From IMG/VR virus record IMGVR_UViG_2879765931_000007: a stretch of 47,296 nucleotides of DNA, one strand, 5' to 3'. The DNA comes from a virus. Its lineage: Duplodnaviria; Heunggongvirae; Uroviricota; Caudoviricetes. The first letter of the stretch is position 1. Every line of letters begins with the position of its first letter. Position numbers: made by a program. Below, piece after piece: positions 27,101-31,267 of the stretch.

Positions 27101-30100
27101 GTGAACCTCGATCAGAGTGGTGGATTAGCCCGGCAGGTGGGCGCTGGCTCCTGAGCGCCATAAACAGGGCTTTACCTGTCAGCTCTTTTGTCATGCGCTC
27201 TCCCATGGCGTAGCCGACAATTTCACACGTATAAACATCTTTGATGCCAGCGAGGTACAACCATCCCTCCTGTGTGGCAACATACGTCAGGTCCGCCACC
27301 CAGACCTGATTTGGTGCTGTAGGAGCGAACGTCTGGTTCAGCAGATTTGGCGCAACTGGCAGATTGTGGTTCGGGTTCGTAGTCGCTCTGAACTTGCGTT
27401 TCTGCTTACAGCGTAGCCTCAGCTCCTTACGAAGACGTGCCAGTCGGTCACGACCAACGATGATGCCATTCTCTGCCAGCTCCGTCTGGAGCCGCCGGGT
27501 TCCATATGTTTCGCGAGTGCGGATATGTGCCACCTTAATCTCCAGTTTTAGCCGCTCATCACTTTGTTTTCTGTCTGAGGGTTCATGCTGTACCCAGTTG
27601 TAATAACCGCTCCTGGATACACCAAATACCTGACACATCGCTTCAATGGGAAATTGTTGTCGCCATTGTTCGATTAACGCGTATTTTTCAGCGACTCCTG
27701 TGCAAAATACGCTGTTGCTTTTTTTGGTAATGACTCCAACTTACTGATAGTGTTTTATGTTCAGATAATGCCCGATGACCTTGTCATGCAGCTCCACCGA
27801 TTTTGAGAACGACAGTGACTTCCGTCCCAGCCTTGCCAGATGTTGTCTCAGATTCAGATTATGTCGCTCAATGCGCTGAGTGTAACGCTTGCTGATAACG
27901 TGCAGCTTTCCCTTCAGGCGTGATTCATACAGCGGCCAGCCATCCGTCATCCATACCACGACCTCAAAGGCCGACAGCAGGCTCAGAAGACGCTCCAGTG
28001 TGGCCAGAGTGCGTTCCCCGAAGACGTGCGCCACAACCGTCCTCCGTATCCTGTCATACGCGTAAAACAGCCAGCGCTGACGTGATTTAGCACCGACGTA
28101 GCCCCAATGTTCGTCCATTTCAGCGCAGACAATCACATCACTGCCCGGTTGTATGCGCGAGGTTACCGACTGCGGCCTGAGTTTTTTAAGTGACGTAAAA
28201 CCGTGTTGAGGCCAACGCCCATAATGCGTGCGCTGGCGCGACATCCGACGCCATTCATGGCCATATCAATGATTTTCTGGTGCGTACCGGGCTGAGAGGC
28301 GGTGTAAGTGAACTGTAGTTGCCATGTTTTACGGCAATGAGAGCAGAGATAGCGCTGATGTCCGGCAGTGCTTTTGCCGTTACGCACCACGCCTTCAGTA
28401 GCGGAGCAGGAAGGACATCTGATGGAAATGGAAGCCACGCAAGCACCTTAAAATCACCATCATACACTAAATCAGTAAGTTGGCAGCATTACCCGCGTTA
28501 AGTTCTTCGAGCATCTTACGAATATCACGAAGGACATTTCGGTGCTCCTTGCCTGTCAGCTCAGCAATTTCAACTGAGGTCATGGACACAAGCTGGTCGA
28601 GGTTAATGATGCTGATTTCTTGTTGTGGTTGTTGTGGTTGTTGTGGTTGTTGAGACATCGCTTGATTTCCTTTTTGTTTGCACCCTGAAGTCGCACCCCC
28701 ACTGACCTACTCAAAGTCCCCAAGCGAAGGGAGACCAGCAGGACAACAGGATGCAAACAGAATGACTTTGAGATTGAATACTATGATGATGACGATGTAG
28801 CTGTGCGGAGCTACTGGGAGGGTCTCTCTAGGAGCCACTCTAGGGTCTCTCTAGGCATCAGGCTATACGAAACTACAGGGCATCCTAAAGAATGACGTAC
28901 AGGGCCATAGAGGACCATAGAGGACCATAGAGGGCCATAGAGGGCCATAGAGTTAGCTTCTGGGGGTAATGCCTAGAGGAGACCCTAGAGAGACCTATAG
29001 AGAGACCATAGAGAAGACCTATAGAGAGACCCTAGAGAAGACCTATAGGTTTGGTGATTGATTATTATAAATATCATCACCCCTTAAGGTATTCCCTTAG
29101 AGTTAATCTTTAATTGGTCTTTAATTAAATCTTTTATTTAATACTTAAAGTTAATCTCTAATTGTGTCTTTAAGTTAACTTTAAGTAATACTATAAGTTA
29201 ATCTTTAATTGTGTCTTTAAGTTAACTTTAAGTTAAGCCCCTGTAGGGACTAGAGACCATAATTAAGATGATTGTGTCTTATTGCTATTCACTTATCGAC
29301 TGACCCAGAGCACACAGGAAGCATTCACTTTAAGTAGAACGCTTGGTGTCTGTAATTGGTCATCCCGCCCCTGAAAGGATGCGATAAGTTACGGTTAGTT
29401 GTCCTAGAAGAGAAAACTTTTTGTGTCCCTTCTCCCTATAGTGAGTCGTATTAATTATCCCTTGACAAGTAGAGAAAACTATGAGTCAAAAACATGACCA
29501 CACAGGTCTGTAGTAAGTGTCATCCTAGACTATGGTCTCCTCTAGGTCTCCTTATAAACATCAGCCATCACATTGACCAGCCTATCAACCTCGACCTCTT
29601 TAGCATAACGGTCGTACGTAATAGACCCTGAACTATGCCCCATGATCGCCTGTGCATACGCCAACTCGACCCCATGTTGTTTTAACTGGGTCGCAACTGT
29701 ATGTCTAAACGAGTGAAACGCTAAGCCGCTACGGTCTACGAGGACTTTAGGCAACAACGTCCGATTAAACCATTTACTCACCTGCTCACCGTAACCGTTC
29801 TTCATGAGACGCAGACCATCGAACACCATAGCGTCATCACCGTCAGCGCCTCTACGGGTCTCTACAAGCGCCATAAAGTCAGCCAATATAAAACCATAGG
29901 CCCCATCGACCAGAGGCACACAGCGGTCACTATGAGCGTTCTTGATGCTCTTACCGGGTAGACTACTATCGTCTTCATTGATATGAATATAAACGGTTCC
30001 CGCCTCAGTGGTCCTGACGTCTTTGACCTGTAGTTGGGCTATTTCATTGAGTCTCGCCCCAGTGATAGCAGCCAAGGCGGTAACATAATAATGATACGGC

Positions 30101-31267
30101 TTACCAGAGGTCTTCTGAGAGTATGCCTTAGCTGCGACCAGTAGTTGCCCCACCTGCTCCGTAGAGAAGGCGTTACGGGCCCCTGAGGCTTTACGCTGAG
30201 GGACTTTAAGCTCCAGACCCTCAGTCATGTTCTTTTTAATCAAGTCATTGCGCACAGCCCACCTAAAGACAGCAGCCATCTTAATAAGATACTTGTTGTT
30301 GATGGTAACGACATCCAGACAATCTGTCTTATCTTCACGGCTCAACAGGTCAGCAAGTGGGACATCCTTGAAGCGCTGCTTACGGTTCCTAGGTAACTGC
30401 TGGAGCACATCACGGACCCTAAGCATGTCAGCCCTGTTAGCGTCTGCATTGAGACCCAGATGGTCGAATATTTCGATTAACGCAGCGTGTGACGCCTTGT
30501 TTTCCCTTAAGGTTGCAGGCTTCCAGTTCTGATAGTTCTCCGCTTCGTATTGCTCAAAGAGGCTCGCTATGGTAATGCTAGGCGTAACTTCTGGTTTTAC
30601 TTCTGGAGCATTAACAGATAGGGACACAGAGTCTGCTTGGTTATCTTGCCTATCAATATCATTAAAAAGATCGACGTAATCTATCAGAGGCTGACTGTCT
30701 CCCGCTTCGATACGCCTCATACAGGCTTTTAGCACCTTCAGGGCCTCATTGATGTAACGATGCTGGTCAATGCTTAGCGGCTCACTAGCCAGAGCATCGG
30801 TAAGGCTCTCACCAAGTTCTCCGTATTGGTCCCGGTAGATATCCCTCATGTCAGGCTCAAAGAGATCTGAACGGCCCATAGACAGTTCACACTCAGCGAT
30901 GTCCTTAAGGTGTTCCCTCATTTCCTCGTAGGTAGCGTTGGGTCTGTCTGCGTGTATTGCCTTGAGTGCTGCCTTTATGTGCCTTGAGTAAGCCATAGCG
31001 GTGCGTCTATCCTTGGTCCGTAATGATATTGAGGTCATTCTATCTGAAGTGGCACACTGAATTTGGCCACCTGAACAGAGGTGATATGCTCACCTCAGAA
31101 CAACACAGGTGCTCCAATGAAAAAAGAAATTTTAGCGCAGAGTTTAAACGCGAATCCGCTCAACTGGTTGTTGACCAGAAATACACGGTGGCAGATGCCG
31201 CCAAAGCTATGGATGTTGGCCTTTCCACAATGACAAGATGGGTCAAACAACTGCGTGATGAGCGTCA

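Follow-up and report, generated by a model that had tools for sequence, protein, structure and literature searches.

A small integrative element of Enterobacterales with T7-type promoters and a T7 concatemer-junction sequence, a candidate satellite of T7-like phages

Among the described phage satellites, cf-PICIs such as EcCI2 (~10-15 kb) encode their own portal, head-tail connectors, protease/scaffold and small terminase and are induced from temperate helpers; PLE of Vibrio cholerae (~18 kb) is a satellite of the strictly lytic phage ICP1, with its own replication initiator and with ICP1 proteins as triggers; and the PICMIs of Vibrio (about 5.5-6 kb) carry alpA together with a small-terminase-type module and lack a capsid gene. 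T7 is among the best-studied viruses, and its origin and concatemer junction together reportedly suffice for amplification and packaging of a plasmid by T7. To our knowledge, the T7 promoter, a standard laboratory tool, is assumed to be absent from bacterial chromosomes. A literature search (PMC and bioRxiv to mid-2026) returned no satellite of T7-like phages and no paper on DUF6971, a protein discussed below. Here we analysed a 47,296-nt stretch of DNA (IMG/VR virus record IMGVR_UViG_2879765931_000007; hereafter the window), in which an earlier note made from the sequence had pointed to a T7 promoter beside a tyrosine integrase gene. This segment belongs to a conserved mobile element and is not an artefact, and the window copy is the dead proximal half of an ~6.4-kb element ruined by the insertion sequences (IS) IS911 and IS1. 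Judging from its sequence, the element is probably a satellite of T7-like (Studiervirinae) phages, a new family within a known kind, which would be transcribed, and probably also replicated and packaged, with helper functions.

T7-type signals of the element

On the minus strand at 29431-29453 the window carries TAATACGACTCACTATAGGGAGA, which matches the T7 class III consensus from -17 to +6 without a mismatch (23/23) and T7 phi13 over 27/27 positions, confirming the promoter reported in the earlier note. It points into the Rha-to-capsid operon of the element and lies 88 bp past the integrase stop, the spacing given before (the open reading frame, ORF, ends at 29542), oriented away from the integrase. 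No promoter match was found in 100 shuffles of the window, not even at three mismatches. When 100,044 species-representative genomes were scanned, the exact 23-mer occurred in four contigs only, three of them small (0.5-5.4 kb) and assumed, unverified, to be cloning-vector carry-over, and the fourth the same element in K. pneumoniae ATCC 13883. The comparison with T7-group genomes that the earlier note had proposed gave little: against 50,697 phage genomes, megablast of the region found no match, and the sole blastn match was ~59 bp around the promoter in Salmonella phage Vi06. Because no phage genome matched beyond these ~59 bp, the region is not copied phage DNA.

Relatives of the element were found in E. 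coli, Klebsiella, Pectobacterium, Serratia, Lonsdalea and Yersinia, each with one to five promoters, every one of them on the operon strand and facing the operon. E. coli and Shigella copies have one or two exact T7 promoters (one in E. coli 2018-05-2CC, at the homologous position; two in tandem in E. coli 21AR0133). Klebsiella copies and a Klebsiella-like E. coli copy carry the K11 consensus AATTAGGGCACACTATAGGGAGA, which is that of K11 phi9/10/13, the exact T7 promoter and AATTAGGTAGCACTATAGGGAGA; both K11 and KP32-like types are present in Klebsiella. The Pectobacterium promoter is T3-like (AATTAACCCTCACTATAGGGAGA, one base from T3), Yersinia has three or four copies of TAATACGACTCACTATTGGGAGA, Serratia has the T7-type TAATACGACTCACTATAGGGAGG, Lonsdalea has four or five copies of YAATAAGGCCCRCTATAGGGGGA, and metagenomic copies and Erwinia bear further variants. 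Promoters of the AATTAGGTAGC type occur 5-8 times per genome in many viral genomes of 40.3-41.3 kb, and the Yersinia type once or twice in viral genomes of 38.5-40.8 kb. The changes fall mostly in the -12 to -8 specificity region while position and orientation are conserved, as would be expected of promoters that serve the RNA polymerases of local T7-like phages. The promoter type thus appears to track the T7-like phages of each host, and together with the junction copy described next it provides the cis signals matching a helper that are looked for in a satellite.

Within the integrase ORF, on the promoter strand (minus, 30612-30631), lies a 20-nt copy of the T7/K11 concatemer junction, CTCTGTGTCCCT followed directly by ATCTGTTA. 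It is identical to T7 149-168 (20/20) and, over its first 19 nt, to K11 170-188 (19/19), of which 180-188 are annotated as 'concatemeric junction'. The copy comprises the last 12 bases of the T7 genome and the class II RNA-polymerase pause core ATCTGTT, which follows CTCTGTGTCCCT on the non-template strand in the direction of transcription. Pausing at the class II site is said to be required for maturation of T7 DNA. The ATCTGTT core itself is documented (10.1101/2021.01.11.426313, 10.64898/2026.02.12.705533). The 19-20-mer is invariant in the E. coli, Klebsiella and Pectobacterium copies and one base off in Lonsdalea; it falls in a variable linker of the integrase, where neighbouring codons differ between copies, and its invariance amid varying codons points to selection acting at the DNA level. 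The Yersinia variant uses a different integrase, and there the junction lies, with one mismatch, in non-coding DNA, with T7-terminal-repeat-like DNA ahead of it and short CCCTTAAGT repeats behind. In Serratia and in the 4.2-kb variants that lack a capsid gene, the junction copy is degenerate. The packaging role that had been proposed for the repeat arrays near the promoter is conjectural, the 20-nt junction, which the earlier note had missed, being the sole true match to a T7 genome end.

Just downstream of the promoter, a ~115-nt block (29284..29397, minus strand) is the most conserved non-coding DNA of the family, surpassing the integrase across E. coli, Klebsiella, Yersinia and Serratia; it was found in loci L001, L002, L006, L008 and L013 and in 22 metagenome loci. 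Its closing stem, ACTTATCG/CGATAAGT, shows one UA-to-CG compensatory change and one G-U variant, and the block may be a structured RNA, with a minimum-free-energy z-score of only -0.76; an Rfam search of 28400-29700 returned nothing credible. AT-rich, TTAAAG-rich repeats follow at 29101..29236 (minus strand), where Tandem Repeats Finder (TRF) reported a 47-bp period repeated 2.8 times at 29101-29233. The window thus has one promoter with AT-rich repeats ~200 bp downstream, which in layout only is that of an origin. The T7 primary origin consists of phi1.1A/B and 61 AT-rich bp, a layout matched by the tandem promoters of 21AR0133. Short words are common to the region and to the DNA after K11 phi1.05 and phiOR, and a BLAST search with short words, comparing the intergenic region with T7 and K11, returned promoters and TTAAAG-type words only. 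On this sequence evidence, promoter and AT-rich repeats form a candidate T7-type origin.

An inverted repeat, GGTGAT...ATCACC, is conserved among the relatives (29053..29081, no strand assigned), and T7 has a similar one after phiOR at 39319-39346. Beyond it, short tandem arrays (28819..29048, minus strand; TRF) have unit sequences that vary between relatives: 12/24-bp units of the TAGAGAGACC type repeated 6.3 times (28974-29048), a 10-bp unit repeated 5.2 times with 95% matches (28901-28952) and an 11-bp array repeated 3.3 times in the opposite orientation (28819-28855). TRF thus upheld the earlier description of repeat arrays, with its five 10-bp units and inverted copies; the AT-rich part is made of the 47-bp period and not of two 39-bp copies. 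T7 primase pentamers (GGGTC/TGGTC) number 9 and 11 per strand in the window arrays against 1.8 expected, and 21 and 16 against 2.9 in E. coli 21AR0133, counts that are non-independent since they lie in repeats; a role of the arrays as T7 primase recognition sites is speculative. Upstream of the first operon gene, a leader with hairpin potential (28658..28775, minus strand) is conserved in E. coli, Klebsiella, Yersinia, Serratia and Lonsdalea, with poor alignment and weak covariation.

Intact relatives and the window copy

The same integrase/promoter module, which the earlier note had suggested seeking in related genomes, turned out to be present in many. Among 5426 complete E. coli genomes, 369 carry a related integrase and intergenic segment beside glyU/actS, 201 of these 369 have the promoter-proximal non-coding DNA, and 113 of the 5426 have the DUF6971-capsid module. 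In intact relatives the 23 bp at the 3' end of tRNA-Gly are repeated at the far end, as had been anticipated, and this attachment (att) repeat delimits discrete units of 6.3-6.5 kb in four genera. The element measures 6.46 kb in Klebsiella, 6.33 kb in Pectobacterium, 6.40 kb in Serratia and ~6.1 kb plus an IS5 in E. coli 21AR0133, with a 12.5-kb form in Lonsdalea and a short 4.2-kb variant in E. coli. An integrase and att repeats bounding a small element that lacks a full set of virion and replication genes is the general make-up of a satellite. TGTAACC repeats near both att ends resemble integrase arm sites.

Intact members have four to six genes in the order integrase, in some cases PD-T7-4, control region, DNA-binding protein, a 62-83-aa protein, DUF6971 and a 354-402-aa protein, the control region running from one to five promoters through the conserved ~115-nt block and AT-rich repeats to the short tandem arrays. 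The first operon gene encodes a DNA-binding protein of Rha, KilA-N, Bro-N or ANT type. The 354-402-aa product had no sequence match in Pfam, PHROGs, PADLOC or PDB; its AlphaFold model (pLDDT 70) retrieved only HK97-fold capsids and encapsulins in Foldseek, in all of the top 50 matches and with E down to 6e-8, and by this model the last operon gene encodes an HK97-fold capsid protein. The family is small, with 49 clusters at 90% identity and 60 representatives among 1.84 billion proteins, and all of it falls within Enterobacterales. A tblastn search of 50,697 GenBank phage genomes found no capsid homologue, which we count in favour of a satellite, and BLASTP showed no similarity of the capsid to T7 gp10 and nothing between DUF6971 and T7 gp9. 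DUF6971 (L002 11686-12096), encoded directly upstream of the capsid gene, is 85% identical to PDB 5EUR, the orphan structure of SF216 from S. flexneri 5a M90T, with a small head and two long helices; its gene position and helices allow the guess that it is a scaffold. Pfam and PHROGs revealed no portal, head-tail connectors, protease/scaffold or small terminase, and between the att repeats there are no genes for a single-subunit RNA polymerase, a T7-type replisome, portal, tail or terminase. A ~21-23-aa hydrophobic ORF follows the capsid gene in Klebsiella and E. coli (L006 10715-10780; L002 ~10370-10440, minus strand).

Some members depart from this plan. The Yersinia variant encodes a 1365-aa full-length homologue of the T7 internal virion protein gp16 (43% identity), and Lonsdalea a seemingly similar 1326-aa SLT-domain protein at the same position; these SLT-domain genes of the 12.5-kb variants lie at L008 10503-14600 (Yersinia enterocolitica) and L014 10520-14500 (Lonsdalea). 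The Yersinia variant encodes an HNH protein as well. Klebsiella and some E. coli relatives carry PD-T7-4/RAZR, a DUF4145 zinc-finger HEPN protein (PADLOC 8e-99), as optional cargo between the integrase and the phage promoters (L006 6397-7029; L010 2170-2811; L016 7333-7962; L017 7333-7965; L044 1795-2433). PD-T7-4 and RAZR are the same protein, an RNase switched on by the portal ring of T7 and T3 (PMC13017515), and that paper does not mention the element context described here. In the window copy PD-T7-4/RAZR is absent and the promoter region directly follows the integrase stop. The 4.2-kb variants (L001, L018) keep the integrase, T7 promoter and control region and have a KilA-N protein and a 157-aa protein, WP_000467315.1, in place of the capsid module (L001 13839-14312 and 14436-14999; L018 4472-4945).

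In the window, the element abuts a tRNA-Gly(UCC) gene (32512..32586, minus strand; ARAGORN), the last gene of a cluster of four tRNAs at 32512-32822. The adjacency of tRNA-Gly and integrase noticed before therefore stands, with the correction that this tRNA is a member of a lambdoid-prophage cluster and not chromosomal glyU; E. coli prophage tRNA clusters match the window from 32512 onward only and not on the element side. The 3' end of tRNA-Gly (32512-32534, TTCGATTCCC...GCCCGCTCCA) is the attL core, the 23 bp found duplicated at both ends of intact relatives. The core GGGTTCGATTCCC...GCCCGCTCCA is common to the prophage tRNA-Gly(UCC) and glyU, and the DNA past the window tRNA is near-identical to that past glyU in E. 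coli copies, which together indicate that the element arrived by ordinary site-specific integration, with this tRNA as a secondary site. No second att copy lies in the window, so the far repeat sought by the earlier note exists only in the relatives.

The integrase, of the tyrosine type (DUF6538 and Phage_integrase by Pfam on the Klebsiella orthologue), is split by IS911 (31045..32292, plus strand), which is foreign to the element and left the clean ATC duplication already recognised (31042-31044 and 32293-32295). Its main part is an ORF at 29542..31044 (minus strand) and its first 35 codons lie beyond the insertion at 32293..32397 (minus strand; tblastn, 97% identity to aa 1-35 of the E. coli integrase). 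The gene therefore does not start at 31038: beyond IS911 its reading frame leads back to an ATG at 32397, which lies 114 bp from tRNA-Gly and not about 220 bp as estimated before. By tblastn the window integrase is 94% identical to that of E. coli 21AR0133 and 87% to that of Klebsiella. A Rha-family gene does follow the arrays, as claimed, reduced to a stump of the first ~54 codons (28495..28657, minus strand) cut by IS1 at 28494 and 88% identical to aa 1-41 of E. coli Rha (tblastn). Everything after codon ~54, namely the small ORF, DUF6971, the capsid gene and attR, is missing, and tblastn with the downstream proteins (small ORF, DUF6971, capsid) found no match in the window. The N-terminus of the Rha stump has a QQP repeat from a 9-bp unit, TTGTTGTGG, repeated 3.7 times (28620-28652), which is absent in the E. 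coli orthologue.

The remainder of the window is Shigella-like: it contains ipaH, sitABCD, remnants of Q, ORF6N and RecE, and numerous IS copies. A gene for an IpaH-type effector (LRR_TTSS and NEL E3 ligase) lies at 4209-5924 and, with the IS load, points to a Shigella chromosome. A four-gene ZnuA/ABC-3 transporter resembling sitABCD (20423-23872) stands amid prophage remnants and IS elements, and lambdoid remnants at 8450-9082, 11526-12950, 33031-33678 and 36470-37054 comprise an Ash+Rha protein, a RecE-like exonuclease VIII, an ORF6N protein and a DUF1133/Q antiterminator. The recipient tRNA cluster is located between Q-side genes and the expected position of the lysis genes. S. flexneri GCA_900457185.1 (L145 8679-10652) mirrors the window: it has the distal half only (a 64-aa ORF, DUF6971 and a 379-aa capsid), adjoining lambdoid holin/lysozyme/Rz genes, the proximal half having been taken by an IS. 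The distal half beside lysis genes indicates that the Shigella element sits between prophage tRNAs and holin and was torn by IS elements.

A satellite cycle and its alternatives

The anatomy and conservation of these sequences suggest how a satellite of this kind would work. It would stay silent until a T7-like phage infects, makes its own RNA polymerase and shuts off that of the host; the phage polymerase would be the sole reader of the element promoters and would switch on the operon only in infected cells. Promoter and AT-rich DNA would act as a T7-like origin, recruiting the phage replisome to copy the excised element. Transcription around the excised or concatemeric element would then reach the junction, where the polymerase would pause and the phage terminase cut as at a T7 end, which would leave one element end at ...GTGTCCCT. 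The DNA would be packaged in shells of the element capsid protein with portal, core, tail and terminase of the helper. A single copy would fit a small shell of about T=3; as a lead only, six copies of 6.3-6.5 kb make 38-39 kb, near a T7-size genome. The window element entered the prophage-borne tRNA-Gly and was later wrecked by IS911 and IS1. In its full form, this proposal describes the first satellite family of T7-like virulent podophages, with helper-polymerase promoters (types swapped to match local phages) as infection switch, T7-origin mimicry, a junction hidden in the integrase and its own small HK97-type capsids on helper portals and tails, and we give it slightly better than an even chance. 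Of the ideas in the earlier note, that of a satellite borrowing T7 signals is favoured by the linkage of the module to an integrase, by the tracking of promoters and hosts and by the capsid in intact copies, without the packaging role of the arrays, and that of a module triggered by T7 RNA polymerase is compatible as part of the same satellite picture.

Several observations weigh against a satellite. In the tRNA-Gly elements, a search near the junction turned up no convincing left-end cut site of the TCTCACAGT type and no T7-like terminal repeat upstream of it, and the AT-rich region resembles T7 origins in motif style and not in alignable homology. The elements contain no recognisable excisionase, portal, terminase or replication gene, and some members (the 4.2-kb forms, L001/L018) have no capsid gene. 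A fold search with DUF6971 returned only its own crystal structure, 5EUR, and no scaffolding protein. IMG/VR viral contigs yielded no relative of the capsid, and no circular or free form was seen among the ~6.4-kb metagenome contigs, which end at the att repeats. In the members that carry it, RAZR would respond to the T7 portal and abort infection by the helper (PMC13017515).

Part of this evidence would also fit a phage-polymerase-triggered defence island that is not itself transduced, the main alternative, which we regard as rather unlikely. Its promoters would sense infection and its proteins sabotage the phage, be it a capsid-like decoy or encapsulin-like shell, the DNA-binding proteins or the 157-aa protein of the 4.2-kb variants, and the junction copy and origin-like DNA would be traps for phage polymerase, replisome and terminase. 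It gains from the retention of the promoter in the 4.2-kb variants without a capsid gene, from a capsid model closest to encapsulins, from the same lack of capsid relatives in IMG/VR viral contigs and from the presence in some members of the proven anti-T7 gene PD-T7-4/RAZR (PMC13017515). However, RAZR lies upstream of the phage promoters, beside the integrase, and is therefore cargo and not part of a triggered module. Without particles it is hard to account for a conserved capsid gene, with DUF6971 perhaps serving as scaffold, for the gp16 homologue of larger variants and for an exact junction, and the same att site was reached in at least six genera, which needs a route of transfer. Known satellites also defend, and the two readings overlap because satellites usually also interfere with their helpers.

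T7-type promoters, the junction sequence and the gp16 homologue of some relatives could also be what is left of an integrated T7-like podovirus of which only the genome end was kept, as in the integrase-bearing T7-like prophages of other bacteria. This possibility, raised in the earlier note, is very improbable, since the intact elements are discrete att-bounded units of 6.3-6.5 kb with the same gene order in several genera and without T7-type RNA polymerase, DNA polymerase, portal, tail or terminase genes (the 12.5-kb variants have only the gp16 homologue). Their capsid sequence is unrelated to T7 gp10 or to that of any GenBank phage, and the window region has no megablast match among phages. 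A decayed T7-like prophage was rejected on the discrete units and the missing T7 genes. The exact 23-mer is also typical of vectors, and three of its four species-representative matches lie in the small contigs (0.5-5.4 kb) assumed, unverified, to be vector carry-over; a cloning vector or assembly artefact with a laboratory T7 promoter is nonetheless a negligible prospect. The flanks are not vector, the same promoter and context recur in many complete E. coli chromosomes, in Klebsiella ATCC 13883 and in metagenomes, and relatives bear promoter types that are not laboratory ones. This conservation across independent genomes refuted the artefact and removed the doubt about vectors voiced in the earlier note.

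Implications and comparison with known systems

If the element is a satellite, it would stay silent in its carriers until a T7-type RNA polymerase appears, and these carriers make up about 2-7% of the complete E. coli genomes and include many genomes of Klebsiella, Pectobacterium, Serratia and Yersinia. Phage therapy would be touched, as cocktails against Klebsiella and E. coli are rich in T7-like phages and both resistance and gene transfer would be at stake. The element would supply a genomic context for RAZR/PD-T7-4 and for the orphan structure PDB 5EUR (SF216), would show co-evolution of the promoter specificity of single-subunit polymerases with parasites and would amount to a naturally occurring minimal set of the signals for T7 replication and packaging.

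The likeness to T7 and K11 is one of cis-elements, comprising the promoter (23/23; 27/27 to phi13), tandem promoters with TTAAAG-rich DNA and the junction (20/20 including ATCTGTT); beyond these no DNA similarity could be aligned, the elements come in a different order and no terminal repeat was recognised. T7 transducing plasmids are artificial and packaged as ~40-kb concatemers in T7 heads, whereas this element, which holds natural counterparts of the T7 origin and concatemer junction, occurs naturally, integrates and has a capsid protein of its own. Of the described satellites, PICMIs, PLE and cf-PICIs come closest to it. Like the PICMIs, it is very small, has an integrase and would rely almost totally on a helper; no gene homology was seen, in a comparison that included no direct search for PICMI marker genes. 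PLE offers a parallel in lifestyle, as a satellite that excises, replicates and is packaged in one lytic cycle of its phage, amid degradation of the host genome, and also protects the host population; PLE has no promoters for a phage RNA polymerase, and its genes are unrelated to those of the element. With cf-PICIs the intact relatives share an HK97-fold capsid protein of their own (the gene is absent from the window), but they lack the portal, connectors, protease/scaffold and small terminase of that group: at ~6.4 kb, the element contributes the capsid protein and DUF6971 only, under promoters of virulent T7-like phages.

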